Positions 23,458 to 45,558 of a stretch of DNA of 64,000 nt are shown here, piece after piece. The notes beneath the pieces were generated by a model. The model was not told the DNA's origin. It searched no databases and saw only the letters and a list, made by a program, of their open reading frames with translations. The translations under genes were made by a program, and so were the position numbers. Source of the stretch: an uncultured Desulfobacterales bacterium (lineage in GTDB: Bacteria > Desulfobacterota > Desulfobaccia > Desulfobaccales > 0-14-0-80-60-11). Position 1 is the stretch's first letter. Each line of letters opens with the position of its first letter. The DNA lies in NCBI GenBank assembly GCA_964480485.1, contig CAYZOP010000007.1:3914-67913 (forward strand), given 5' to 3'.

Positions 23458-25027
23458 GGCGCTGGGCCAGGTTGTCCGCCTCCTGCTGGGTCTGGGTTTC
23501 CTGCACGTGGTGGGATATGCCGGCTTTCGCCTGGCCTGCCCGCAGCCCGGCGCTTTTTCCCGCCCGGAGCGGTTTTCCCTGAGCTTCGGCCTGGGAGCCC
23601 TGGGCGTGAGCCTCTGGATGCTGGGACTGAGCGCCCTGGCCCTCCCCTTCCACCCGTCCTTGCTGCTGCTGCCGTTGGGATTGGCGGCAGGCGCAGTCTT
23701 CTTGACCATGCGGCGCCCCCCGGCAGGCCCATCCCCGACCCCAGCCCCCGAGCCGGCCTCCCCTGATTGGACGGGGTTCGAGAAGCTCTGCCTGGGACTG
23801 CTGGCGGCGCTCTTCATCTTTGCCTTCTTGCGGGCTTCGCTCTTCCCCCTCTGGGCCTGGGACGCCATCGCCACCTGGGGCTTCAAGGCCAAGGTCTTCC
23901 ATCTCCGGCAGGGGGTGGATTTCACCGGCTTCAGCGCCCACAACTACTACCCCAACCTGGTGCCCCTGCTCCTCACCTTTCTTTACGGCTGTCTGGGGCG
24001 GGTCAACGACCACCTGGTGCAGGCCCTGTTCCCGTATTGGGGCGCCATGCTGCTCATCCTCCTGGCGGCCTTCCTGCGGCGCCTGGGGCTGAGCCGCCCC
24101 CAGGCCCTGGGGGTGACCGCGTTTTTTGCCTCGAGCGGGGTCACCTTCATCACGCATCTTTATATCGCCTACGCCGACCTGGCCCTGACCTATTATGCCC
24201 TGGCCGGGTCCGGCCTCACCTACCTCTGGCTCCGGGATCAGGCCCCGCCGGGGTCGCTGCCTGTGGCGGCGCTCATGGGTGCCGGCCTTGCCTGGACCAA
24301 ATTTGAAGGCCCACCCCTGGCCGCCACCATTGTTCTGGCCGCGCTCCTCACCCTGCTGTGGCTGCGCCCGCCCCGCCTCTGGCGCCGTCTGGCCGCGCTG
24401 GGCTGGCTGGTGGGAGGCATCCTGCTGGGGGTCCTGCCCTGGCGGCTGTTCATGCAAGCCCGCCAGATCGAGGTGGGCAGCGACCATATCCTGAGCTTTT
24501 TCCCCCATCAGCTTCTTCAGGCCCTGCCGCCTTTCTTCAAGATGCTGGCCTCGCCCTGGGGATTCGGGTTCCTCTGGTGGGCCGCCTTGACTGCGGTCAT
24601 CCTCACCGGCAGGCGCCTTTTTGCCACCCCCCGCCTGTTTTTGGCCCTGTTGTTGGCCGGCAACCTGCTGGCCGTCCTCCTGGGCTACGCCCTGCCTCCC
24701 ACTTCGGCCGAAGAATTCCCCTTCTACGTCCGGGCCACTCTGGACCGTCTGCTGCTGCACATTGCCCCACTGGCCGCCCTGCTGGTGGGGGAGGCCGTGA
24801 TGGACGTGGGGGGAGGAGGCCGGTGGGCCCCGGCCCCCTCCTCCGTATCCCCTCCCTCCACCCCAGAAAAAACGGGCAGGGAAGGCGAGCCGTTGGCCCG
24901 CCTTCCCTGCCCCATCTGCGGACTGGGAGGGGGTGCAGAAAGAGGGCAGGGACCTCAGATCCCTGCCCTCCCCCGTCATCAACCTATCCCAGTTTACACA
25001 CCCCGGCCGCGCATTTCTTGGCGGTGA
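23450..25027 (+). CDS. Polytopic membrane protein, GT-C/ArnT-PMT-like glycosyltransferase candidate
   Basis: About 525 aa from MTEALGQVVRLLLGLGFLHVVGY. It has more than 10 predicted TM helices and sits downstream of the GT2 gene. The family assignment is by architecture only. Confidence 0.55.
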   Translation: MTEALGQVVRLLLGLGFLHVVGYAGFRLACPQPGAFSRPERFSLSFGLGALGVSLWMLGLSALALPFHPSLLLLPLGLAAGAVFLTMRRPPAGPSPTPAPEPASPDWTGFEKLCLGLLAALFIFAFLRASLFPLWAWDAIATWGFKAKVFHLRQGVDFTGFSAHNYYPNLVPLLLTFLYGCLGRVNDHLVQALFPYWGAMLLILLAAFLRRLGLSRPQALGVTAFFASSGVTFITHLYIAYADLALTYYALAGSGLTYLWLRDQAPPGSLPVAALMGAGLAWTKFEGPPLAATIVLAALLTLLWLRPPRLWRRLAALGWLVGGILLGVLPWRLFMQARQIEVGSDHILSFFPHQLLQALPPFFKMLASPWGFGFLWWAALTAVILTGRRLFATPRLFLALLLAGNLLAVLLGYALPPTSAEEFPFYVRATLDRLLLHIAPLAALLVGEAVMDVGGGGRWAPAPSSVSPPSTPEKTGREGEPLARLPCPICGLGGGAERGQGPQIPALPRHQPIPVYTPRPRISWR

Positions 25028-26831
25028 TGTGGTCTTCGAACTCTTGGCGGAAGTTTTTCAGCACACTTAAGTAGGGCGCCGGCGCGGTCTGTCCCAGGGG
25101 ACAGAAGGAGGCGTCCATCATCACCGCAGCCAGGCGTTCCAGGAAGGCCAGGTCCCCCTGAGTGCCCTCTCCCCGGCAGATGCGGTTGACGGTCTTCAGG
25201 ATCTGGGGCGTGCCCTCCCGGCAGGGGGTACATTGGCCGCAGGACTCGTGGGCGAAGAACTTGGCCACGGCGCGTACGAAATCCACTACGCAGACGCTTT
25301 GATCCATGACCAGCATGGTGCCGGAGCCCAAGGCACCGCCCGCCTTGGCCATGGCGCCGAACTCCAGGGGCACGTCCAAGGCGTCTTTGGTCACTACGCC
25401 GGCGGAGGCCCCGCCGGTCTGGCAGAACTTAAAGGTGCTGCCGGCCCGCATACCCCCACCGTAAGTGTCGATGAGCTCCCGGAGGGTGATCCCCGCGGGC
25501 ACCTCCACGATCTGGGGCGTGTTCACGTGGCCGATGACCTGGTAGATCTTGGTGCCGGTGGTGTCAGCGGTCCCCAGGCCCTTGTACCAGGCGCCGCCCT
25601 TGTCGATGATGGCCGGCACGCTGGCCAGGGTTTCCACGTTGTTGACGATGGTGGGCTTGCTCCACAGGCCCGCCACTCCCGGGAAGGGCGGCTTCATGCG
25701 GGGGTAGCCCCGTTTGCCTTCGATGGACTCGATGAGCGCGGTCTCCTCGCCGCAGATGTAGCAGCCGAAGCCGGAGCGCACCTCGATGTCAAAGGAAAAT
25801 TCGGTGCCGAAGAGCTTGTTCCCCAAAAAGCCCCGGGCCCGGGCCTGTTCAATGGCCTTGTTGAGGCGGTACTTGGAGAGATAGTACTCGCCCCGCACGT
25901 AGATGTATCCCTGGGAGGCCCCCACCGCGAAGCCGGCGATGGCCATGCCCTCCAGCACTTTCTGGGGGTCGCCCTCCATGATATACCGGTCCTTGATGGT
26001 GCCGGGCTCGCCTTCGTCGGCGTTGCAGATGATGTATTTGGGGGTCACGGTCAGGGGCCGGGTGAAGGACCACTTGAGCCCGGCGGGGAAGCCGGCGCCG
26101 CCACGCCCCCGGATACCGGCAGTCTTCACTTCTTCCACCACCTGTTCCGGGGTCATGGTGGTAACCGCTTTTTTGAGGGCCTGCCAGCCGCCGGCGGCCA
26201 GGTAGTCGTCGATCTTTTCCGGGTCGATTTTCCCCACGTTCTTAAGCAGGATGAGCTCGCCCGAGGCCTGCTTGTAGGTGGTGAAGTCGTTGGTGGTGCA
26301 CTTTAAGGTGGTGAAGTCCGGCGCCTTGCCGGCCCGGTAGTCGGCCACGATCTGCCTGAACTTCTCCCGGGTGAGGTGGCCGTGCACCACCTCGTTGATC
26401 TGCATGGCCGGGGCCACCTCGCAGACTCCCAGGCAGGCGGAGAGCTCCAGGGTGAACAAGCCGTCCGGGGTGGTTTGCCCCAGGCCCACCCCCAACTCCT
26501 CCTGGGCAATCTCCAGGAGGTTTTCGGAGCCGCATACGTGACAGGGGGGCGACTCGCACATGCGGACGACATACCTGCCCTTGGGGCGCCAGGTGTACAT
26601 GGAGTAAAAGCTCATGACCCCGAAGATGTCGCTTCCAGGAACATTGAGCCCCAAGGCCAGCCGGTCCTGGACTTCCGGGGGCAGATAGCCCACCGCTTCC
26701 TGGACTTCCTGGAGGGCGGGCATGAGATTTCCGGGCTGACCCCGGTATTTGGCGATGATGGCGTCGATCTTCTCCCACTGGGCCGGGCTGAGTTGGGCCG
26801 GAGCGTGTGCCGCGCAGCTGCAATGTGTCAT
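24984..26831 (-). CDS. NAD-linked formate dehydrogenase diaphorase subunit, NuoE-NuoF fusion
   Basis: N-terminal NuoE-like 2Fe-2S domain (CESPPCHVCG...ACLGVCEVAP). This is followed by NuoF motifs GRGGAGFPAGLKW and ESCGQCTPCREG. Confidence 0.9.
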   Translation of the reverse strand: MTHCSCAAHAPAQLSPAQWEKIDAIIAKYRGQPGNLMPALQEVQEAVGYLPPEVQDRLALGLNVPGSDIFGVMSFYSMYTWRPKGRYVVRMCESPPCHVCGSENLLEIAQEELGVGLGQTTPDGLFTLELSACLGVCEVAPAMQINEVVHGHLTREKFRQIVADYRAGKAPDFTTLKCTTNDFTTYKQASGELILLKNVGKIDPEKIDDYLAAGGWQALKKAVTTMTPEQVVEEVKTAGIRGRGGAGFPAGLKWSFTRPLTVTPKYIICNADEGEPGTIKDRYIMEGDPQKVLEGMAIAGFAVGASQGYIYVRGEYYLSKYRLNKAIEQARARGFLGNKLFGTEFSFDIEVRSGFGCYICGEETALIESIEGKRGYPRMKPPFPGVAGLWSKPTIVNNVETLASVPAIIDKGGAWYKGLGTADTTGTKIYQVIGHVNTPQIVEVPAGITLRELIDTYGGGMRAGSTFKFCQTGGASAGVVTKDALDVPLEFGAMAKAGGALGSGTMLVMDQSVCVVDFVRAVAKFFAHESCGQCTPCREGTPQILKTVNRICRGEGTQGDLAFLERLAAVMMDASFCPLGQTAPAPYLSVLKNFRQEFEDHITAKKCAAGVCKLG

Positions 26832-26846: not shown

Positions 26847-29537
26847 TTACGCTTTTTCGACCTGCACGGCGCAGACCTTGTATTCCGGGATCTTGCACAC
26901 CGGGTCCAGGGCGGCGTTGGTGAGTTTGTTGGCCGCGGCCTCGGCGAAATGGAAGGGCAGGAATACCGTGCCGGGCACCGCCTTGCCGGAAACCTGGGCC
27001 CGAGCCGTGATCTCGCCCCGGCGGGAGCGCACCCTCACCCGGTCGCCCTCGGCGATGCCATATTTGGCGGCGTCCGCCGCGGCCATCTCCACCCGGCATT
27101 CCGGGGCTTTTTCCGCCAGCCCCGGAGCCCGGCGACTCATGGTGCCGGTATGGTACTGATAGAGGAGCCGGCCGGTGGTCAGATACAACGGATAGTCGGC
27201 ATCCGGCATCTCCGCCGGATCTTTGTGCTCGATGGCAAAAAAGGCCCCCAGGCCCCGGGCGAAGCGGTCCTTGTGCAGAAACACCGTGCCGGGGTGGTCC
27301 TCCGTGGGGCACGGCCACTGGATGCCCCCGGCTTCCAGGCGCCGGTAGGTAATGCCGGCGTAAGCAGGGGTGACCGTGCGGATTTCCTCGAAAATCTCCT
27401 CGGGGCCGGTGTAGTTCATGGGATAGCCCAGCCGGTTGCTGAGCTCGCAGATGATCTGCCAGTCGGGCTTGCAGCCGGGAAGCGGCGGAATGCACTGGCG
27501 CACCCGGGCCACCCGCCGCTCGGTATTGGCAAAGGTGCCGTCTTTTTCCGCAAAGGAGGCGGCGGGCAGCACCACGTCGGCCAGTTTGCCGGTCTCGGTA
27601 AGGAAGATATCCTGGACCACCAATAGATCCAGCTTCTGCATGGCCTTGATGGCATGCTCCGAATCGGGGTCCGACAGGGCCGGGTTTTCCCCCATGATGT
27701 AAAGGGCCTTTATCTCGCCGGCGGCGATGGCCGGGAGCATGTCGGTCATGGTCTTCCCCACCCAGGCGGGGAGGTTGTTCACGCCCCAGGCGGCCTCCAT
27801 TTTCTTGCGGGCCGCTTCGTCGGTCACCGGCTGGTAGCCGGAAAAGACGTTGGGCAGGCCCCCCATGTCGCAGGCGCCCTGGACGTTGTTCTGCCCCCGC
27901 AAGGGGTTGACGCCGCCCCCCCAGACGCCCACGTTGCCGCAGAGCATGGCGAGATTCGCCAGGGATTTGACGTTGTCGGTGCCCACGGTGTGCTGGGTGA
28001 TGCCCATGCAATAGACGATGGAGGCCACTTTGGCCCGGGCATAGAGGCGGGCCGCGGCCGTGATATCCGCCGCCGGGATGCCGGTGATCTGCTCCGCCCG
28101 TTCCGGGGTATAGTTCGCCACCGTTTCCTTGAGCGCCTCAAAGTTTTCCGTGCGTTCGGACACGTAGGCGGCATCATAGAGGTTTTCGGCGATGATGACG
28201 TGCATCATGGCGTTGAGCAGGGCGATATCGGTGCCCGGGGTCTGCCGGAGGTAGAGTTTGGCGAACTTCACCAGGTCCTGACGCCTCGGGTCCACCACGA
28301 TGAGGTCGGCGTTTTTGAAGCGCACCGCCCGCTTGATGCGGGCTGCGATGACGGGATGGTTTTCGTTGGTATTGGAGCCGATGACCAGGATGCAGTCGGC
28401 GTCCTCCAACTCGGCGATGGAGTTGGTCATGGCGCCGGAACCGAAAGACGCGGCCAGACCGGCCACGGTGGCGCTGTGTCAGAGACGGGCGCAGTGATCC
28501 ACGTGGTTGGTGCCTAACGCCGCCCGCATGAGTTTCTGCATGAGGTAGTTTTCCTCATTGGTCACTCGAGCGGAGCACCAGCCGCCGATCTTTTCGGGAC
28601 CGTGCTTTTCCCTGATCTCTTTCAGTTTGTCGGCCACAGAGTTAAGAGCTTCGTCCCAGCTCGCCGGCACCAGCTCCCCGTTTTTCCGGATGAGGGGCGT
28701 GGTGAGGCGGTCGGGATGTTGCACGAAGCCCCAGCCGAAGCGGCCCTTGACGCACAGGCGGCCGTCGTTGGGCGCGGCGTCGGCGCCCATGACCTTGACG
28801 ATTCTGCCGTCTTTGACGTGCACCTCCAACTGGCAGCCCACCCCGCAGTAAGGGCAGGTGGTCTTGACCTTGGTGCGCTCCCAGGGGCGGCCCCGGCCGA
28901 TGGCGTTCTTGTCCAAAAGGGCCCCCACCGGGCAGGATTGCACGCACTCCCCGCAGAAGACGCAGTCCGAGTCGATGTAGGGGTAATCCGCCTTGGCCAC
29001 GATCTTGTTGTGGGAGCCCCGGTAGCCGATGGCGATGGCGTCGTTCACCTGGCGCTCGGTGCAACCCCGGACACAGCGGCCGCACATGATGCACTTGGAG
29101 AAGTCCCGGACGATCATGGTGTTGTTGTCTTCAAAATAATACGTGGTATCCGGGGGGTTGGCGAAGGGTGGCGTGGGCACCTGGTAGCGGTAGGCCAGGG
29201 CCTGGAGCTCACACTCGCCGTTGGCCTCGCAGATCAGGCAGTTGTGATTGCCGCTGGCCAGGGCCAGCTCCAGCACCATCCGTCGGGCTTCGGCCACCTT
29301 GGGGGTCTCGGTCTTGACCACCTGGTTGGCCGCCGCCGGGGTGGCGCAGGCAGGCAGCAGGGTCCGGGCTCCTTCCACTTCCACCACGCACATGCGGCAG
29401 GAGCCGGTGGGCAGGGTGTCTTTCATCCAGCACAGGGTGGGGATGAACACCCCGGCTTGGCGCGCCACCTCCAGGATGGTCTGGCCGGGCTTTATGGCCA
29501 CGGTCATCCCGTCGAGGGTCAAAGTCGGTTCGGCCAT
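26847..29537 (-). CDS. fdhA: Formate dehydrogenase alpha subunit, selenocysteine-containing (NuoG-like Fe-S N-terminus plus molybdopterin domain)
   Basis: Track ORFs 28479..29537 and 26847..28466 are in the same frame (2691 nt). They are joined by a single TGA at 28479-28481 in the context [30 protein letters not shown], which is the canonical FdhA Sec site. Confidence 0.92.
28450..28481 (-). promoter_or_regulatory. Candidate bacterial SECIS hairpin following the fdhA UGA
   Basis: UGA + 12 nt + GUGGCC-GGUCU-GGCCGC (6-bp stem). The GGUCU loop starts 18 nt after the UGA, the same spacing and loop as my recollection of the E. coli fdhF SECIS. Confidence 0.6.
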
Positions 29538-29820: not shown

Positions 29821-30091
29821 CCTGGCCGTGCACCCTCCTTCGCCTCCGCCACAAGCCAGGGTGGCAACCGGGGGGTGAAGGATTAGGGTCCGCCACGACA
29901 CAGCCGGCCCGGCTTACCGCTGCTTCCTCCCGGACCTGACGGGGTTCACCGGCGTCTGTTGCGTGGGGTCCAATCCGCCCTTCCGGGCCTCCACCCTGGC
30001 GGCGCTGCGAGACTCTGGGAGGGGGTTCAACCCCGCATAAGCGGCTTTCGGGCTACAGGGCACCGCTAGCTCCCCGTCTAGCACGACCAGG
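29821..30091 (-). ncRNA. ffs: Signal recognition particle RNA, large (Bacillus-type, Alu-domain-containing) form
   Basis: The reverse strand contains the domain IV core GUCAGGUCCGGGAGGAAGCAGCGGUAAGCC. Its 5' Alu block CGUGCUAGACGGGGAGCUAGCGGUGCCCUGUAGCC closely matches my recollection of B. subtilis scRNA. The termini CCUGGUCGUGC and GCACGGCCAGG pair with each other. Length is 271 nt. Confidence 0.85.
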
Positions 30092-31720: not shown

Positions 31721-32629
31721 ATGTCCCGGCAAGATAATCAGGAACACCGTGGCCAGGAACGGCCCCAAATGACCGAAGTCTTCGGGTTTCAAGTGCCCAC
31801 CAGCGGATATTACCTGCACCGGGGACATGCCTGGGCCGTTATTGAGGCAGACGGCCACGTGCGGGTGGGGCTGGACGATTTCTCTCAGAAAGTCCTGGGG
31901 CCCGCCGATGCGGTCAAGCTGCCCGAAATCGGCAAAGCCTATTATCAGGACCACATCTGTCTGACCCAGGTGCGCCAGGGCCACAAGGCCCCCTTTCTGG
32001 CCCCGGTGGACGGCACGGTGGAGGCGGTCAACCAGTCTATTTTGAAACGCCCCGCCCTGATCCATGAAGACCCCTACAAAGAAGGCTGGCTCTTCACGGT
32101 TCGGCCCACCAACCTGAAGCGTAATCTGGAAAACCTGCTCTATGGCGAAGCCAGTGTGGCCTGGATCGACGAGGAATCCCACCGCCTGCTGCATCTCATG
32201 GAAACCAAGGTGGGGGTTACCCTGCCCAGCGGCGGTGCCTTCGTGGATGACATCTACGGCCACTACCCCTCCTTGGGGTGGCGTCCCCTGGTCCAGGACC
32301 TGTTTTTACCCATCCTGACCAGGACCTGGAGAAAACGGCCGTCGGCGCTGGAGGCCAGGGATATCGAGGAACTGCGCCGGGAGGTCTTTCGGGTCTTGAG
32401 CCGGGCGTCGGAAGATCGGGATTTTCGGATCGCCCTGATGGACCTCCGGACCGAGGTCCTGGACGCCTACCGGCTGCCCCCCGAAGCCAAGACCGCCATC
32501 CTGGCGGGTGATTTGACCTGGCTGAACGAGCATATCGGCGATCTTACCCAGAAACAGCTGATGTTCATCCTGTCCTGCCTGCTTCCGGGCAATGCCTTCT
32601 TTCGGGGCAAGGCGGCCAGGGCCAGCTGA
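31721..32629 (+). CDS. GcvH-like domain protein with conserved extension and helical tail (paralog 1)
   Basis: AAGGAGA RBS. Residues from about 30 to 140 align without gaps to the glycine-cleavage H fold (HAWA...VGLDDF....LG......LPEIG.........APVDG.V..VN.......P..I..DPY..GWLF). The lipoyl-Lys column is Gly. Confidence 0.75.
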   Translation: MSRQDNQEHRGQERPQMTEVFGFQVPTSGYYLHRGHAWAVIEADGHVRVGLDDFSQKVLGPADAVKLPEIGKAYYQDHICLTQVRQGHKAPFLAPVDGTVEAVNQSILKRPALIHEDPYKEGWLFTVRPTNLKRNLENLLYGEASVAWIDEESHRLLHLMETKVGVTLPSGGAFVDDIYGHYPSLGWRPLVQDLFLPILTRTWRKRPSALEARDIEELRREVFRVLSRASEDRDFRIALMDLRTEVLDAYRLPPEAKTAILAGDLTWLNEHIGDLTQKQLMFILSCLLPGNAFFRGKAARAS

Positions 32630-33039: not shown

Positions 33040-36000
33040 ATGAATTCCAGCGGCTCTCCATCTGAAAGACACGGGGCGGTGTTGGTGGTAGGCGGCGGCA
33101 TCGCCGGGATCCAGGCAGCTCTGGACTTGGCCGATGCCGGGTTTTTCGTTCATCTGGCGGAGCAGAGCGCCGGCATCGGCGGCGCCATGGCCCAGTTGGA
33201 CAAAACCTTCCCCACCAACGACTGCGCCATGTGAATTATTTCGCCCAAGCTGGTCGAGTGCGGTCGGCACTTGAACATTGAGCTGTTGACGCTCACGGAA
33301 TTGGCAAGCCTGGAGGGAGAGGCGGGAAATTTCACCGCGACCCTGAGGAAAAAGCCCCGCTACGTTGACCTGGACAAATGCATCGGCTGCGGCCTGTGCG
33401 CCGAAAAATGCCCCAAAAAGGCGCCGGATGAATACAACCTGGGCCTGGCCAGGCGCAAAGCCATCTATGTGAAATACAGCCAGACGGTCCCCCTGAAATA
33501 CGCCATCGACCCGGAGACCTGCATCTACTTCAAAAAGGGCACCTGCAAGGCCTGCGAGAAGCATTGTCCCGCCGGCGCCATCAAACTGGACGACCAGGAG
33601 GAACGGCTCATCCGGAAGGTGGGAGCCGTGGTCCTGGCCACCGGTTTTCAGCCTTACAACCCAAAGGTCCTTACCGGCTACGGCTACGGCAGCCATCCGG
33701 CGGTGGTCACCAGCCTGGAATTCGAGCGCATCCTGAGCGCCTCCGGGCCCTTCGGCGGTCATCTGGTACGGCCGGCGGACCACGCCGAACCCAAGCGCAT
33801 CGCCTGGCTGCAGTGCGTCGGTTCCCGGGACACCAAGCCGGAGTCGCACACCTACTGCTCCGGCGTTTGCTGCATGTACGCCATCAAACAGGCGGTCATC
33901 GCCAAGGAGCATGCCGGCGGCCACCTGGACACCACCATCTTCTTCATGGACATGCGCACCTATGGCAAGGATTTCGAGCGTTATTACGAAAACGCCAGGG
34001 ACGGCCTGGGGGTGCGGTTCGTCCGCTTCCGGGTGCATTCCGTGGACCCTCTGGGTGGGGACCGCAAACAGGTGCGCATCACTTATTTGGAGGAGGACGG
34101 CACCCCCAGGCAGGAGCTATTCGACTTGGTGGTGCTCTCCATCGGCCTGGAGCCTGCCGCTGACACCCAGGCGCTGGCCGGGAGGCTGGGCGTGGAACTG
34201 GACCGTCATGGGTTCATCACCGCCAGCTCCTTTGCCCCGGTGGCCACCAGCCGTCCGGGGGTGTACGTCTGCGGCGCCTTGGCCGGCCCCAAGGACATCC
34301 CCTATTCGGTGATGGAGGCCTCGGCGGCGGCCGGGGCGGCGGCCAGTACCCTCAGCGACCAGCGCTTCACCCAGGTCCTGGAGAAGACCTACCCGGCGGA
34401 GCGCGACGTGACCCAGGAACCCCCCCGCATCGGGGTTTTCGTATGCAATTGCGGCATTAATATCGGCGGGGTGGTGGACGTCCACCAGGTGGCCGAATAT
34501 GCCCGCACCCTGCCCCAGGTGGTGCACGTGGAGGAAAACCTTTACACCTGCGCCCAGGACACCCAGGACCGCATGAGTGAAATCATTGCGGAACAAGGCT
34601 TAAACCGGGTGGTGGTGGCCGCCTGTTCGCCCCGGACCCACGAGGCCTTGTTCCAGGAAACCCTGAACAATGCCGGCCTGAACAAGTACCTCTTCGAGAT
34701 GGCCAACATCCGCAACCACGATTCCTGGGTGCATGCCCAGACCCCGGACTTGGCCACTCAAAAAGCCAAGGACCTGGTGCGCATGGCGGTGGCTAAAGCG
34801 GCGCTCCTAGGTCCCCTCACCGAGGCGGAGTTGCCGGTGACCCAAAGCGCCCTGGTGGTGGGCGGCGGTGTGGCCGGCATGACCTCGGCCCTCACGCTGG
34901 CCCGACAGGGCTATCCGGTCCACCTGGTGGAGCAAGGCGACGTCTTGGGCGGCGCCGCCCGGCGGCTGTTGGCCACCTACCGGGGTGAGGAGGTGGGGGC
35001 TTTCGTGGACCGGCTGACCGCCGAGGTTTCGGCCGAACCCCAGATCACCGTGCACCTCCAAAGTTCCCTGACAGAAGTCCAGGGGTTTGTGGGCAACTTT
35101 CAAACCAGCCTTAAGACCCCTTCAGGGCCGGTCACCATCCCTCACGGCGTGGCAGTGCTGGCCACCGGGGCCAAGGAATACCGGCCCCAGGAATACCTCT
35201 ACGGCGACCACCCCGGGGTGGTGACCCAACTGGAGCTGGACGAACTGCTCCGCCGGGAGGACCCCCGGCTGAATGGGCTGGAGAGCCTGGCCTTCATTCA
35301 GTGCGTGGGCTCCCGGGACGAACAGCACCCTTACTGCTCCAAGGTCTGCTGCACCCACTCGGTGAAGGCCGCCCTGGAGATCAAGCGTCGCCGGCCCGAA
35401 GCGGCGGTGACCATCCTGTATCGGGACATGCGGACCTACGGGCCCCGGGAGGACCTCTACATCGCCGCCCGGGAGGAGGGCGTGCTGTTCGCCCGCTACT
35501 CCCTGGACCGGAAACCCACGGTCAGTGAGGAGGACGGGCGGCTTTCTCTGAAGTTTGTGGACCCCATCCTGGGACGGGCGGTGGCGTTGCCGGTGGATCT
35601 CCTCTGCCTGGCCGCGGCCATCGAATCCCACCACGACCAGCAGTTGGCCCAGATGTTCCGGGTGCCATTAGACGGCGACGGCTGGTTTTTAGAGGCCCAC
35701 CAGAAGCTCAGGCCGGTGGACTTTGCCAACGACGGCATCTTCCTGTGCGGCATGGCCCACTATCCCAAGCCCCTGGAGGAAAGCATCGCCCAGGCCCAGG
35801 CGGCTGCAGCCCGGGCGGCCACGGTGCTGTGCAAGAGCAGCATCCGGGTGAGCGGGTTGGTGTCCCGCATCACCCCGGAACTCTGCTGCGGCTGCCAGAT
35901 CTGTGTCAATGTCTGCCCCTATCAGGCCATCAGCTATGACGAGGGCCGGGGGGTGGCCATGGTGAACGAGGCGTTGTGCAAGGGGTGCGGGGCCTGCGCT

Positions 36001-36087
36001 GCCGCCTGCCCCTGCGAGGCCCCCCTGCTTATGGGGTTCACCCATCGTCAGTTGTATGCCCAGATCAAGAATGCCCTAGCGTTTTGA
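33040..36087 (+). CDS. hdrA: HdrA-like heterodisulfide reductase subunit A, selenocysteine-containing, extended (about 1015 aa) two-Rossmann form
   Basis: Track ORFs 33040..33234 and 33271..36087 share one frame. The TGA at 33232-33234 sits in [30 protein letters not shown], the HdrA Cys/Sec site. There are two GxGxxG motifs ([24 protein letters not shown]) and several 4Fe-4S CxxCxxCxxxCP motifs. A GGGAGG RBS is present. Confidence 0.9.
33232..33273 (+). promoter_or_regulatory. Candidate SECIS hairpin after the hdrA UGA
   Basis: CGAGUGC-GGUCG-GCACUUG (7-bp stem, 33255-33273). The loop contains GGUC and starts 27 nt after the UGA, further than in fdhF. Confidence 0.4.
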
Positions 36088-36107
36088 CCGCCGATGGAGG
36101 AGGCGTC

Positions 36108-36617
36108 ATGGAAGAAAGACCATTTGAGCCTAGACTGCTGGCATTTGTCTGCAACTGGTGCGCCTACGGCGCCGCAGACCTGGCCGGGGTGAGCCGGCTG
36201 CAATACCCGGCCAATGTCCGGCTGCTTCGGGTCATGTGTTCCGCCACGGTGTCGCCGCACCACATCCTCAGGGCCTTGCAGAGCGGGGCCGACGGTATCC
36301 TGGTGGGCGGCTGACACCTGGGGGACTGCCATTACCTGTATGGTAATCACATGACGCAAAAAAGGATGCTGTTCTTGCAGGATTTCTTATCCTTTGTGGG
36401 CCTGGGAGGGAGGTTGCGCCTGGAATGGATCTCCTCGGCCGAGGCCAACAAGTTTGTCCAGGTCGTCACTGAATTCACCGAGCAGATTCGCCGCTTGGGG
36501 CCCAGCCCCCTGCGCACCGGCCAGGAGGCGTTGGCCGCTCTGCACCTGCCGCCGGTCTCGGAGGCCGCCGGCCGGGCTGCCTGCCCCTGCGGCCACGCAC
36601 CCCAGGTGGTGGTATAG
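36108..36617 (+). CDS. mvhD: MvhD-like (methyl-viologen-reducing hydrogenase delta) 2Fe-2S protein, selenocysteine-containing
   Basis: MEERPFEPRLLAFVCNWCAYGAADLAGVSRLQYP...ADGILVGG-U-HLGDCHYLYGN...RLRLEWISSAE. The TGA at 36312-36314 aligns with the Cys of the MvhD motif GGCHxGDCHY. Track ORFs 35976..36314 and 36351..36617 are in frame. Confidence 0.88.
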
Positions 36618-36626
36618 GTACCGCTT

Positions 36627-37445
36627 ATGGCTGAGCTACATGACACTGTGCGCGAGTGGCTGGAAAGCGGCAGGGTGGACCTCTTCCTGGGCTATCGGGA
36701 GGTGACCGGTCATCCCCTGCCTTACGCCTTTACCAAAGAAAACCTGGAGGAATTGACCGAGCTGGAAACCAGCCTGAGCCGCTATCCTTTGGAGAAACTG
36801 GCAGCCGGCATCCTGGCGGTCCAGCCCGAGCTTAAGATCGGCCTCTTGGGCCGGGACTGCAACCGTCGGGCGGTAAACGTGCTCTTGGTGCACCAGCAGG
36901 TGGCCCCGGGACAGATTGAGGTGCTGGAGGTGAATTGCTGTCCTTCGCCCTTAAAGCCCCGACCCGACTGCTCCTCGCTTTCACCCCGGACTTACGGTCC
37001 GGTGAAGCTGGCCGAGGGCATCAACAACAACCTGACGCCGGCTCAATTCGAGCAGTACGGCCAGACGGAGCGTTTTGACCGCTGGCTGTATGAATTTCAG
37101 AAGTGCCTGAAATGTTACGGCTGCCGGGATATCTGCCCGGTGTGCTTCTGCCGGGAGTGCTCCCTGGAGCATGGGGACCTGGTGGAGACCGGGGCTCTGC
37201 CACCGGAAGTGCCGCTCTTCCATCTCATCCGGGCGGTGCACATGGCGGGCCGCTGCATCGACTGCGGCCTGTGCGAGGATGCCTGTCCGGTGGACATACC
37301 CCTGCGGCTGCTGTACCGGAAAACCAATCAGATCGTCAAGGACCTGTTCGGCTACGAAACCGGCCTGAGCCTGCGGCAGCCTCCCTTCAGCCTCCTGGGT
37401 GAACGCGCCCCGGGCGGGGGCGAGGTCAAGCAGGCGGCGACCTAA
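36627..37445 (+). CDS. 4Fe-4S dicluster protein, putative electron-transfer subunit between MvhD/HdrA and FdhA
   Basis: C-terminal half: CLKCYGCRDICPVCFC...CIDCGLCEDACP. The N-terminal 150 aa or so are unassigned. Confidence 0.72.
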   Translation: MAELHDTVREWLESGRVDLFLGYREVTGHPLPYAFTKENLEELTELETSLSRYPLEKLAAGILAVQPELKIGLLGRDCNRRAVNVLLVHQQVAPGQIEVLEVNCCPSPLKPRPDCSSLSPRTYGPVKLAEGINNNLTPAQFEQYGQTERFDRWLYEFQKCLKCYGCRDICPVCFCRECSLEHGDLVETGALPPEVPLFHLIRAVHMAGRCIDCGLCEDACPVDIPLRLLYRKTNQIVKDLFGYETGLSLRQPPFSLLGERAPGGGEVKQAAT

Positions 37446-37470: not shown

Positions 37471-39516
37471 ATGTACAAACTGGTTCCTTCGGTATGTTCC
37501 TATTGCGGCACCGGCTGCGGGGTGTTGTTTCAGGTTCTGGATGGTCAGATTCTTGGGACCCTGCCGCTGAAAACCCACCCGGTGAACGAGGGCAAACTGT
37601 GCATCAAGGGCTGGAACCTGCATGAATACGTGAACAGCTTCATGCGCTTGCAAGCCCCCCGCATCCGCATCAACGGGCGCCTGCACCAGGTTACCTGGGA
37701 CCGGGCCATCGGGTTTTGCGCCGACCGGCTCAAGAGCGTCATCGCCCAGCACGGGCCGGACAGCGTCGGAGTGCTGGCCTCGGCCAAAATCACCAACGAG
37801 GAGAACTACCTCTTGCAGAAATTCGCCCGGGCGGTGGTGGGCACCAACAATGTTGACCACTGCGCCCGCCTCTGACACTCCTCCACGGTGGTAGGTCTTA
37901 CCGCCGCCTTCGGGAGTGGGGCCATGACCAACTCCATCGCCGAGATCGAGGATGCGGGGTGCATTTTCGTCATCGGTTCCAACACTTCCGCCTGCCATCC
38001 CCTCATCGCCCGCCGGGTGCTCCGGGCCCGGGAAAAGGGGGCCAAGCTGCTGGTGGCCGACCCCCGGCGCATCCACCTAGGTCTCTTCGCCGACGTGGCC
38101 GTCAATCAGCGGGTAGGGAGCGACGTGGCCCTGCTCAATGGTCTGATGCACCTGATTCTCAGAAATGGTTGGGAGGACCGGGACTACATTGCCGAACGCA
38201 CCGAGGGCTTCGCGGAACTGGAACAGTCCCTGGCAGACTATCCGCCGGAGCGCGTCCAGGCCATCACCGGCGTCAGCCCGGCAGACCTGGAGAAGCTGGC
38301 CCGGCTTTATGCCACCCACCGGCCAGCCGCCATCCTCTACACCATGGGCATCACCCAGCACACCACCGGGGTGGACAACGTCAAGGCCATCTGTAACCTG
38401 GCCATGCTCACCGGCAACGTGGGCTTTCCCAGCTCCGGGGTCAACCCCTTGCGGGGGCAGAACAACGTCCAGGGCGCCTGCGACATGGGCGGCCTGCCCA
38501 ATGTCTTTCCCGGCTACCAGGCGGTGAACGTCCCGGATCACCATGCCAAATTTTCCAAGGCGTGGGGCCGGCCCCTGTCGGACAAGCCCGGGCTGACCAT
38601 CATGGAAATGGTCCAGGCCATCGACGCCGGCAAGATGAAGGCCCTGTACGTGGTGGGGGAAAATCCCAAACTCAGCGATCCGGACATGAACCACCTGCGC
38701 CACGCCATGCAGAAGCTGGATCTGCTCATCGTCCAGGATCTCTTTCTTTCGGAGACCGCCCAGGGCGCGGACGTGGTCTTCGCCGCGGCCTCCACCGCCG
38801 AGAAGGACGGCACGTTCACCAACACCGAAAGACGGTGCCTGCGCATCAACAAGGCTATCGAACCGGTGGGTCAGAGTTTGCCCGACTGGGAGATCATCTG
38901 CCGGCTGGCCACCGCCATGGGCTACCCCATGACCTACGGCAGCGCCGCCGAGATTTTCCGAGAGATCGCTTCCCTGACCCCCAGCTACGGCGGCATGAGC
39001 TATGAGCGCCTGGGGATTGACGGATTGCAGTGGCCCTGCCCCACCCCTGAACATCCGGGGACCACATACCTGCATCGGGACCGGTTCACCCGGGGGCGGG
39101 GGAAGTTCCACGTAATCCCGTATCAGGACCCGGCGGAGCTGCCGGATGCCGACTATCCCTTTTTCCTGACCACCGGCCGGACCTTCGTCCATTACCACAC
39201 CGGCACCATGACCCGGGTGTCAGCTCATTTGGACCGGGAGCAGCCCACAGGCTTTGTGGAAATCAACCCGGAGGACGCGGCCAGACTGGACATTCAGGAA
39301 GGAGACCACCTGCTGGTGTCCTCCAAGCGGGGACGCATCGAGGTACCGGCCCACATCAGCCACTCGGTGCTGCCCGGCAACCTGTTTCTGCCCATTCACT
39401 TCGGCGAAAACCCCACCAACGTGCTGACCAGCGCCGAGGCCCTGGACCCCCTGGCCAAAATTCCGGAGTTCAAAGTGAGCAAGGCCCGGGTGGAAAAATT
39501 GGTGGAAGCATGCTAA
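37471..39516 (+). CDS. fdhA: Formate dehydrogenase catalytic subunit, cytoplasmic, selenocysteine-containing (paralog 2)
   Basis: MYKLVPSVCSYCGTGCG 4Fe-4S N-terminus with no Tat signal. The TGA at 37873-37875 sits in [30 protein letters not shown]. Track ORFs 37399..37875 and 37888..39516 are in frame (2046 nt from ATG 37471). Confidence 0.9.
37873..37905 (+). promoter_or_regulatory. Candidate SECIS hairpin after the fdhA-2 UGA
   Basis: GGUGGUA-GGUCU-UACCGCC (7-bp stem including one G-U pair, 37887-37905). The loop starts 18 nt after the UGA. Confidence 0.6.
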
Positions 39517-43467: not shown

Positions 43468-44349
43468 TCAGGTGCTGTGCAGGAACTCGTGCACCAGGCG
43501 ATCCCATCCCAGTTGGGGATAGGCGCCATAGACGTCGTCCAGGATGGCGCCGCCGGAGGGCAGCGTCACTCCCGCCACAGACTCCAGCATGCCCAGGAGA
43601 CGTTGGGCCTCATGTTCTATCCAGGCGACGTTGCATTGGCCGAAGAGCATCTTTTCCAGATCCGGTTTGAGGTGGGTGGGGGAGACCAAAAAGAGCCAGC
43701 CCTCGCCATACGGGTCATCATGGATCAGGCGCGGGTTGTCCCGAATCTTGGGATTAACTGCGTCGATGATGCCGGTGAGGGGGGCCAGCACCGGGGCGGT
43801 CTTGCCCTGGCGGGAGAGCATCAAGGCTGTCTGGTCGGCGAACACCTTTTCTCCCACCTCCGGGAGGCTCACTTCCTCGGGCGGACCCAAAACCCGCTGG
43901 CAAAAATCGTCCATGCCGAGGCGGACCCGGCCGGCATTTTCCAGGGCCACCCAGGTATGTCCCCGGTGGAGGAAACTGGAGACGGGCACCATAATCCCCA
44001 TGACCTCCTGCACTCGGGGCCGCTCCGGAGCCAGAAAGAAGTCAAACTGCTCCTCCAGCAGCTCATCAAAGGAACATTCATGACAGAGGCTGGTCATCAT
44101 CAGGCGGCATTTCTGCTGGTCGCCGAAGCGCTGCCGCATCTTTTCCTCCCACGGCAGGACCTCACGATGCTCCGGGACCGGCTTCGGGCGTCCTTTCCAC
44201 TTGGCCAGGTTGGCAGCCGCAGCTTCCGTCAAGGCCCGGTCCAGCTCACAATGTTCGCAATCAAACTCTTTATCGCAGATCTTGTAGTCAATTACTCCAG
44301 CTTCCATCCAGATACAAGGCTGCCGGCTTTCGGGAAATTCATGTGCCAT
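43468..44349 (-). CDS. Cys-rich N-terminal domain fused to a GcvH-like domain (paralog 2)
   Basis: MAHEFPESRQPCIWMEAGVIDYKICDKEFDCEHCELD...CRLMMTSLCHEC, followed by a GcvH-like fold (HTWVAL...VRLGMDDF...LPEVG...APLTG...DPYGEGWLF). The start is taken at ATG 44349, inside track ORF 43468..44406. Confidence 0.75.
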   Translation of the reverse strand: MAHEFPESRQPCIWMEAGVIDYKICDKEFDCEHCELDRALTEAAAANLAKWKGRPKPVPEHREVLPWEEKMRQRFGDQQKCRLMMTSLCHECSFDELLEEQFDFFLAPERPRVQEVMGIMVPVSSFLHRGHTWVALENAGRVRLGMDDFCQRVLGPPEEVSLPEVGEKVFADQTALMLSRQGKTAPVLAPLTGIIDAVNPKIRDNPRLIHDDPYGEGWLFLVSPTHLKPDLEKMLFGQCNVAWIEHEAQRLLGMLESVAGVTLPSGGAILDDVYGAYPQLGWDRLVHEFLHST

Positions 44350-44430
44350 GGTCCTGCCCTGCCTTTCCCCTGATCTTGGGAAGGACGGGGTGCGGCGGTC
44401 TCCCACCCCGTCCCTGCCGGGTGCAAGCGT

Positions 44431-45072
44431 TCATTGTCTTCCCTTCCAGGTTCTCTTGTCCCAGTTGTCCCAGCCCTCAAAACCGCGCCGCGTTGAGGGA
44501 GTGGTCAGGTTCCGCAGGAAGAACCCCTGGACCAGCCGCCGCCAGCCCAACGCCGGGAAATGGCCGAACACGTCATCGACGATGGTCCCGCCATCTTGCA
44601 GGGTGTAGCCCACTTTGGTATCCAAAAGTTCCAGCAGGCGGTGGGTTTCCTCGTCGATCCACGCGGCGTTGTCCTGCCCATAGCACAGATTGAACAAGTT
44701 TTGCTGGAGATTGATGGGCCTCATGTGGAAGAGCCAGCCCTCGCCGTACGGGTCGTCATGGATCAGAGCCGGCTTCTCCCGAACCCGCTCATTGATCTCG
44801 GTGACCATGCCGTCCACCGGGGCGACGAAGGAGGCCTTGCTGCCATGCCGGAGCAGGGCCATGCAAATGTGGTCCTGATAATAGACCTTGCCCACTTCCG
44901 GCATCTGAATGCCGTCGGCCGGTCCCAGGATCTTCTGGGAAAAATCATCTAGACCAACCCGCACCAGGTCCGTCTTTTCCACCACGGCCCAGGCATGGCC
45001 CCGGTGCAGATAATAGGTCTCGGTGGGTACCCGGAACCCGAAGACCTCCGCCATGTTGGTAGGGGTTTTCAT
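44431..45072 (-). CDS. GcvH-like domain protein (paralog 3)
   Basis: The first 180 aa or so are by eye about two-thirds identical to the 31721 product (MAEVFGFRVPTETYYLHRGHAWAVVE...). A GGAGGG RBS is present. Confidence 0.78.
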   Translation of the reverse strand: MKTPTNMAEVFGFRVPTETYYLHRGHAWAVVEKTDLVRVGLDDFSQKILGPADGIQMPEVGKVYYQDHICMALLRHGSKASFVAPVDGMVTEINERVREKPALIHDDPYGEGWLFHMRPINLQQNLFNLCYGQDNAAWIDEETHRLLELLDTKVGYTLQDGGTIVDDVFGHFPALGWRRLVQGFFLRNLTTPSTRRGFEGWDNWDKRTWKGRQ

Positions 45073-45398: not shown

Positions 45399-45473
45399 TG
45401 GAGGCGGCAACCGGATTCGAACCGGTGTATAACGGTTTTGCAGACCGTTGCCTTACCACTTGGCTATGCCGCC
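45399..45473 (-). tRNA. tRNA-Cys (GCA), CCA encoded
   Basis: Reverse strand: GGCGGCAUAGCCAAGUGGUAAGGCAACGGUCUGCAAAACCGUUAUACACCGGUUCGAAUCCGGUUGCCGCCUCCA. It folds as a cloverleaf with anticodon loop CUGCAAA. Confidence 0.93.
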
Positions 45474-45483
45474 CCAAAATAAA

Positions 45484-45558
<75 letters not shown>

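Follow-up and report, generated by a model that had tools for sequence, protein, structure and literature searches.

An in-frame UGA and a SECIS-type hairpin in an mvhD gene of an uncultured Desulfobacterales bacterium

The mvhD locus

The window analysed here, a 64-kb stretch of DNA from an uncultured Desulfobacterales bacterium, contains an mvhD gene at positions 36108..36617 of the plus strand. The gene runs from an ATG start to a TAG stop (36615-36617) and comprises 169 codons, counting a predicted Sec codon at residue 69. A Shine-Dalgarno-like sequence, GGAGGAGG (36096..36103, plus strand), lies 4 nt before the ATG and may act as such. The reading frame holds a single internal stop, the UGA at 36312..36314 (plus strand; residue 69). 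The read-through translation begins MEERPF...ADGILVGG, meets the UGA, and continues as HLGDCHYLYGNHMTQKRMLFL...RLRLEWISSAEANKF...VVV up to the terminal stop; the predicted Sec69 peptide is GG-U-HLGDCHYLYGNHMTQK. Mechanical ORF calling divides the gene into two pieces, 35976..36314 and 36351..36617, which share one frame and both belong to mvhD, as the original prediction had described. In public collections the gene is deposited as a separate C-terminal fragment of 88 aa.

Once the UGA is read through, the product matches the Pfam family PF02662 (FlpD/MvhD), a family of [2Fe-2S] electron-transfer subunits, with an E value of 4.7e-50 and a score of 169.1 bits (cut-off 22.3), and covers profile positions 2-123 of 123. 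The two fragments are colinear on this profile. Residues 11-68 of the N-terminal fragment fall on positions 2-59 and the C-terminal fragment on positions 61-123, and the UGA therefore corresponds to PF02662 position 60. Among 5.8 billion proteins searched, 6,099 are homologous at E<=1e-10, the best matches being from Deltaproteobacteria/Desulfobacterales MAGs, and the solved MvhD chains 5ODC_D, 8RVU_F, 9SW2_D and 7BKB_F align to the product with E values of about 1e-44 to 1e-41, ungapped to about residue 100 and with one single-residue gap beyond it. The identity of 36108-36617 as mvhD, proposed in the original prediction, is thus borne out by Pfam, by the homologues and by the PDB chains alike. 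Homology to these chains, taken together with the literature, suggests that the product carries a [2Fe-2S] cluster.

Alignment with 18 full-length homologues places the UGA in a column that is otherwise invariant Cys. This is the first Cys of GGCHxGDCHY, where the original prediction had put it and where 5ODC_D reads VGGCHLGDCHY. The Cys columns of the family (CxxC ... C ... GGCHxGDCHY) are occupied here by C15, C18, C44 and C74, with the UGA at position 69. All five columns are invariant, both in the 18-homologue alignment and in the set of 88 genes described below, when Cys and TGA are counted together.

Operon and genomic surroundings

mvhD lies 20 nt downstream of the TGA stop (36085-36087) of a gene for an HdrA/HdrL-like flavoprotein (33040..36087, plus strand; 1,015 codons), in which Pfam recognises Pyr_redox_2, Fer4 and a second Rossmann domain. 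Downstream follow an fdhB-like ferredoxin gene (36627..37445, plus strand; 272 aa with 4Fe-4S motifs, Pfam Fer4, public name 'ferredoxin') and fdhA, which encodes the catalytic subunit of a formate dehydrogenase (37471..39516, plus strand; 681 codons; Pfam Molybdop_Fe4S4, Molybdopterin and Molydop_binding). Genes for a sensor kinase and a sigma-54 response regulator come after the operon. The order hdrA-mvhD-fdhB-fdhA is kept in the five closest loci (L001, L002, L004, L005 and L010), and fdhB stands between mvhD and fdhA in these and also in L009 and L018.

Two of the neighbouring genes contain an in-frame UGA of their own. In hdrA it occupies 33232-33234 (DCAM-U-IISPK), the CxxU motif position, and most related loci have TGA in the same column; in fdhA it occupies 37873-37875 (HCARL-U-HSSTV), again with same-column TGA in related loci. 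The hairpins past these UGAs have GGUCG and GGUCU loops, GGUCU being that of fdhA. Across the five closest loci, TGA is present in mvhD and fdhA in 5/5 and in hdrA in 4/5, the hdrA position of L001 lying outside the fetched stretch. The original prediction counted three Sec codons (hdrA, mvhD and fdhA-2) within about 4.7 kb of one operon; the hdrA and fdhA TGAs are indeed 4,644 nt apart with the mvhD TGA between them, and those of hdrA and fdhA stand at canonical Sec positions.

In-frame TGA at canonical Sec positions is found in hdrA, fdhA-2 and fdhA-1 of the window, which suggests that the organism decodes Sec, and hdrA and both fdhA genes are split by these codons in mechanical ORF calls. 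A search of the 64-kb window for selA, selB, selD and tRNA-Sec, using ARAGORN and, on 30 long ORFs (to ~56 kb), NCBIfam, returned none of them. TGA terminates 22 of the 42 longest non-overlapping ORFs in the window, hdrA included. It is thus an ordinary stop in this DNA, so that recoding in mvhD is local and involves no reassignment of the code.

Codon 69 across homologues

We assembled a set of 88 mvhD genes, drawn from one genome per species in GTDB r232 and made up of the best 80 loci, second copies and the gene of the window. Codon 69 is TGC in 33 of these, TGT in 30 and TGA in 25, with TAA and TAG in 0. Cys-containing orthologues, 63 of the 88, thus bear out the aligned column. TGA occupies the codon in 24 of the 87 homologues from other, species-representative genomes and in 6 of the 10 best-matching loci, and its carriers belong to Desulfobacterales, Desulfobulbales (Desulfobulbaceae/Desulfocapsaceae), Desulfomonile, Syntrophobacteria and Desulforudis. 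Two mvhD genes, L009 and L018, carry a further TGA in place of the second CxxC cysteine (position 18).

A hairpin within the reading frame

A bacterial SECIS-type hairpin lies at 36331..36347 (plus strand), formed by a 6-bp stem of AUUACC (36331-36336) and GGUAAU (36342-36347) that closes a 5-nt loop, UGUAU (36337-36341). The hairpin starts 16 nt past the UGA and its loop 22 nt past it, and it is made of the codons for H75-Y76-L77-Y78-G79-N80. The original prediction had drawn the same element at the same distance; it is present, and it proves specific to TGA-bearing genes. The bSECIS model (PMC13188914) calls for an upper stem of 4-16 bp, a loop of 3-9 nt, a UGA-to-loop spacing of 16-37 nt and an MFE <= -7.5 kcal/mol. 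The mvhD element resembles this model in lying in the ORF just past the UGA, in its stem (6 bp), loop (5 nt) and spacing (22 nt), and in having a G at loop position 2 followed by U.

It departs from the model in stability. The bare stem-loop (26 nt) folds at -5.3 kcal/mol, weaker than the -7.5 threshold, and longer segments reach -7.1 (34 nt) and -8.2 kcal/mol (54 nt). With flanks the values run from -7.1 to -9.9 kcal/mol and straddle the cut-off in a flank-dependent manner. A 64-nt segment has an MFE of -9.3 kcal/mol (z=+1.33 against shuffles), with no excess over shuffled sequence. The hdrA and fdhA hairpins of the same window are far stronger (-16.6 to -24 kcal/mol for 60 nt). No SECIS-type family of Rfam was matched, either in the window at the gathering threshold or in 36200-36500 at E<=10. 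Since the folding energy is not significant, the hairpin was judged by comparative tests instead.

The modest thermodynamics bear on whether the UGA is read as Sec at all. Cys, Trp or Gly could be inserted by near-cognate or reassigned decoding, with the hairpin as a generic stimulator of read-through. This reading fares better than the other alternatives and is still highly improbable. TGA ends about half of the window's long ORFs, including that of the adjoining hdrA, which argues against reassignment, and the site is the Cys/Sec column of a recognised selenoprotein family. The hairpin fits the bSECIS geometry, with a G in the first two loop positions, and the formate dehydrogenase genes in the window have UGA at the catalytic Sec position together with fdhF-like GGUC loops.

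The comparison of TGA and Cys genes separates the hairpin from its coding context. An in-register stem of 6 bp or more occurs in 23 of the 25 TGA genes, as against 2 of the 63 Cys genes (Fisher p=1e-16). Two Desulforudis TGA genes (L025 and L046) contain instead UGCCACUA/UGU/UAGUGGCA, an 8-bp hairpin that is unrelated in sequence and has its centre 3 nt farther upstream. Counting every hairpin of bSECIS geometry whose stem reaches 6 bp or more gives 25/25 for TGA genes and 7/63 for Cys genes.

Because the stem lies wholly in codons of invariant residues (H, Y, G and N), it might be a by-product of the HYLxGN amino-acid motif and of codon bias that carries no RNA signal; in-register compensatory double substitutions are absent, and there is no thermodynamic excess over shuffles. 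Synonymous sites make this explanation extremely unlikely. In TGA genes the stem codons of H75, Y76, G79 and N80 are fixed as CAU, UAC, GGU and AAU (synonymous entropy 0.24-0.43 bit), whereas Cys genes with identical H-Y-x-x-G-N residues use every synonymous codon (0.98-1.83 bit), and codons outside the stem are equally variable in TGA-type and Cys-type mvhD. The different hairpin that the Desulforudis TGA genes carry at the same place likewise argues against it.

The RNAalifold consensus of the mvhD genes is exactly the 36331-36347 helix, with 0 compensatory pairs in register, since the stem does not vary among 23 genes. What favours a functional hairpin in these alignments is synonymous-site conservation tied to the UGA, together with an independent replacement hairpin, and not classical covariation. 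This evidence supports the hairpin as a putative conserved SECIS-like element specific to TGA-bearing genes. The Sec/Cys synonymous-site contrast is the new analytical product of this work, and it provides a reusable signature for sorting Sec-type from Cys-type mvhD in metagenomes: codons fixed as CAU-UAC...GGU-AAU, or a different hairpin, 16-37 nt past the UGA.

Translation beyond the UGA

The protein remains conserved past the UGA. Residues H70, G72, D73 and C74 are 88-100% conserved in the 25 TGA-type genes with varying codons: H is CAC in 19 and CAT in 6, G takes four codons, D is GAC in 18 and GAT in 4, and C is TGC in 20 and TGT in 5. Where paired codons of the TGA genes specify the same residue, the share of synonymous differences is 0.58 over codons 8-68, 0.44 over 70-74 and 0.60 over 81-132; it falls to 0.13 in the hairpin codons 75-80, and there only. 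Amino-acid identity of MvhD to the closest loci is 0.77-0.82 upstream of the UGA and 0.70-0.76 downstream. The conserved residues and free synonymous change past the UGA indicate that the downstream part is translated, and protein-level purifying selection appears to act on both sides of the codon. No orthologues end at the UGA, and the 100 codons that follow it behave as conserved coding sequence whose synonymous sites change freely, as the original prediction implied.

Translation could instead stop at the UGA and restart at the ATG at 36351, which opens the second mechanical ORF and whose product is the fragment found in databases; polypeptides of 68 aa and 88 aa would then assemble into MvhD. 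Such a split would leave untranslated the 12 codons between UGA and ATG (HLGDCHYLYGNH), although these are the family's most conserved and include the cluster-motif Cys74. The residues they encode are kept through synonymous substitutions in TGA genes, and Met82 is not conserved in the family. We regard a split gene as extremely improbable, on a par with the codon-bias explanation of the hairpin; a restart at ATG 36351, like a pseudogene, is excluded by the purifying selection seen before and after the UGA.

Least probable of all is a pseudogene, or a sequencing or assembly error, in which a nonsense change to TGA inactivates mvhD: TGC and TGT are one base from TGA, and gene callers truncate the locus and leave the 88-aa C-terminal fragment deposited separately, but 24 further genomes, from several orders, have TGA at this codon, the downstream protein is conserved as well as the upstream part with near-saturated synonymous change, the TGA-specific hairpin is present, and two neighbours in the operon carry TGA where a Sec codon of their own is canonical. 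We weighed and rejected all four alternatives: pseudogene, split gene, alternative code and codon-bias artefact.

Proposed decoding and role of Sec69

With a probability of roughly 0.93, mvhD is an intact selenoprotein gene in which the UGA at 36312-36314 would be read as Sec via SelB and the hairpin at 36331-36347. Bacterial Sec insertion relies on SelB bound to a hairpin that lies in frame immediately 3′ of the UGA (PMC13188914). In mvhD, the mRNA hairpin would recruit SelB as a bacterial-type SECIS inside the reading frame, and Sec-tRNA(Sec) delivered by SelB would decode the UGA. The product is predicted to be a 169-residue MvhD-family subunit with a [2Fe-2S] cluster, produced alongside an FdhB-like ferredoxin and two further Sec proteins, an HdrA/HdrL-like flavoprotein and FdhA, so that the operon would give rise to a formate-dependent FdhAB-MvhD-HdrA(L) module. 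SelB dependence, the selenium content and the electron path of MvhD are what we infer from the locus. In Methanococcus, Fdh directly binds VhuD and thereby feeds Hdr.

By position, Sec69 corresponds to Cys67 of methanogen MvhD, C18 to Cys16, and H70 and D73 to His68 and Asp71. In the methanogen protein, His68 and Asp71, beside Cys67, face the Cys pair of HdrA, and the fifth conserved Cys, Cys16, is a non-ligand 'additional' cysteine (PMC13580544). Given that the equivalent of Cys16 is a non-ligand, Sec69 would by elimination be one of the four [2Fe-2S] ligands, next to a His/Asp pair that would face the Cys-Sec pair of HdrA.

A tentative proposal, to which we give somewhat less than even odds, is that MvhD holds a natural selenolate-ligated [2Fe-2S] cluster and that the HdrA-MvhD Sec pair tunes the one-electron to two-electron hand-over from this cluster to the bifurcating flavin, with a SECIS in the HYxxGN codons easing Sec/Cys switching. 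A SECIS written in the codons of the invariant HYxxGN would explain easy interconversion of Sec and Cys and the hairpin relics in L079 and L051.

Comparison with known relatives

Sec recoding is already well known for the MvhD family in sulfate-reducing bacteria and methanogens. The standard table of selenoprotein families in prokaryotes lists MvhD/VhuD (PF02662), and both the Sec-containing family and the operon type are textbook material (PMC13188914; PMC2702500). The mvhD gene described here thus extends a selenoprotein family that is already known; its operon type is known as well, and its putative SECIS conforms in geometry to the bacterial model. Desulfobacterota are known to put Sec where MvhD meets HdrA in flavin-based electron-bifurcating complexes, and the gene is another case of this pattern. 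The gene also calls for a correction of annotation, the 88-residue public fragment being in reality part of an intact Sec-type mvhD. With mvhD reduced to this fragment and hdrA and fdhA split, a reconstruction of the organism's energy metabolism from automatic calls would miss an intact formate-dependent HdrA-MvhD-FdhAB module.

The closest described parallel in gene arrangement is Desulfobacterium autotrophicum HRM2, which has Sec-containing mvhD1, mvhD2, mvhD3 and mvhD5 beside Sec-containing hdrA/hdrL, some of these hdrA/hdrL-mvhD loci being followed by fdhB and a Sec-type fdhA (PMC2702500). As in that species, a bacterial (Desulfobacterota) Sec-MvhD here lies directly downstream of a Sec-containing hdrA/hdrL. 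The organism differs, and the Sec column in HRM2 is one that we infer from the 24 other TGA loci.

Archaeal VhuD belongs to the same Pfam family, has Sec in place of a conserved Cys, and acts as the [2Fe-2S] adaptor through which HdrA receives electrons from Vhu or Fdh. Its two Sec residues stand ~50 codons apart, a spacing that matches mvhD positions 18 and 69, and the bacterial genes L009 and L018 show this two-TGA pattern. In contrast, the mvhD gene of the window has one Sec (69) and a Cys at position 18. It has a small in-frame bacterial hairpin rather than an archaeal SECIS in the 3′ UTR, and its partner is FdhAB rather than a [NiFeSe] hydrogenase. Against the VhuD model NCBIfam NF045873 the product scores 135 bits, below the cut-off of 215. 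Because of this score, the single Sec and the bacterial SECIS, we do not consider the gene a VhuD equivalog, although its product would work like VhuD.

Cys-type MvhD of Methanothermococcus thermolithotrophicus (5ODC chain D) and M. marburgensis (9SW2 chain D) aligns to the product without gaps to about residue 100, after which there is a single one-residue gap, and the five conserved Cys columns and VGGCHLGDCHY are common to both chains. These archaeal proteins have Cys at the Sec69 site and an MvhAG hydrogenase as partner.

BamF of the class II benzoyl-CoA reductase of Geobacter metallireducens is an MvhD-homologous adaptor with Sec19 (bioRxiv 10.64898/2026.04.10.717634). This bacterial protein contains one Sec and a [2Fe-2S] cluster, as predicted for the mvhD product, and supplies electrons to an HdrA-like subunit at its bifurcating FAD (bioRxiv 10.64898/2026.04.10.717634). 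The Sec of BamF belongs to the N-terminal CxxC, close to the cluster, and is the counterpart of C18, in contrast to the GGCH position 69 of the present gene, and BamF is more than 100 residues longer than MvhD.

Predicted selenocysteine codons in the window

The second, 88-aa half of mvhD (36351..36617), which follows the in-frame TGA at 36312-36314, is deposited in databases as a separate protein; the selenocysteine of mvhD has therefore been missed by automatic annotation. Within the same Hdr-Fdh operon, the hairpins located 3′ of the hdrA and fdhA-2 UGA codons are far stronger than the mvhD hairpin (AUUACC/UGUAU/GGUAAU, 36331-36347). The hairpin of hdrA (GAGUGC-GGUCG-GCACUU; 33232-33290 with the UGA, + strand) reaches -16.6 kcal/mol for 60 nt, and that of fdhA-2 (GGUGGUA-GGUCU-UACCGCC; 37873-37935 with the UGA, + strand) reaches -24 kcal/mol for 60 nt, with a GGUCU loop similar to the hairpin loop of E. 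coli fdhF.

The UGA at 28479-28481 is a fourth predicted Sec codon in the window. This in-frame TGA, within DHCARL*HSATV, splits a second formate dehydrogenase alpha-subunit gene (26847..29537, - strand) that joins a NuoG-like N-terminus to an Fdh-alpha domain and adjoins a NuoE/NuoF fusion gene (24984..26831, - strand). The hairpin GGCCGGUCUGGCC lies 3′ of the UGA.

Variants of mvhD at homologous loci

Two mvhD genes from Desulfobulbaceae/Desulfocapsaceae (L009:3001-3411 and L018:3001-3411) each contain two in-frame TGAs, at positions 18 and 69, and carry the same AUUACC/GGUAAU hairpin as the window gene 3′ of the second UGA. A two-TGA pattern has been described in archaeal VhuD, and these loci show the same pattern in bacteria. 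The Firmicutes-type mvhD genes of Desulforudis (L025:1030-1437 and L046:3001-3384) also have a TGA, accompanied by a SECIS-like hairpin, UGCCACUA-UGU-UAGUGGCA, which differs from that of Desulfobacterota and sits one codon upstream; at this site the Desulforudis genes have a solution of their own, independent of the other. Hairpins are retained at the SECIS position of two Cys-type mvhD genes, one from a Rikenellaceae MAG (L079:2731-3141, CAUUACCUUGAGGGUAAU) and one from a Bathyarchaeia MAG (L051:1215-1622, 10-bp stem), and may be left over from a recent change of Sec to Cys.

Domain layout of hdrA

The gene labeled hdrA in the window (33040..36087) spans 1,015 codons, with a second FAD/NAD Rossmann domain at residues ~600-720 and a 2x[4Fe-4S] domain at the C terminus. 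In this layout the gene resembles HdrL as known from D. autotrophicum (PMC2702500) more than archaeal HdrA, which is shorter (~660 aa). Neither hdrB nor hdrC was seen adjoining it.

Other features of the window

The Hdr-Fdh operon is flanked by three GcvH-like ORFs (glycine cleavage H/lipoyl-carrier-like; 31721..32629, +; 43468..44406, -; 44431..45072, -), all below curated GcvH cut-offs, one of which weakly matches a ‘GcvH-related protein’ of Desulfo-bacteria. The 64-kb window contains no tRNA-Sec; it encodes a tRNA-Cys/tRNA-Gly pair (45399..45558, -) and a bacterial large SRP RNA (29826..30086, -; 131.8 bits).
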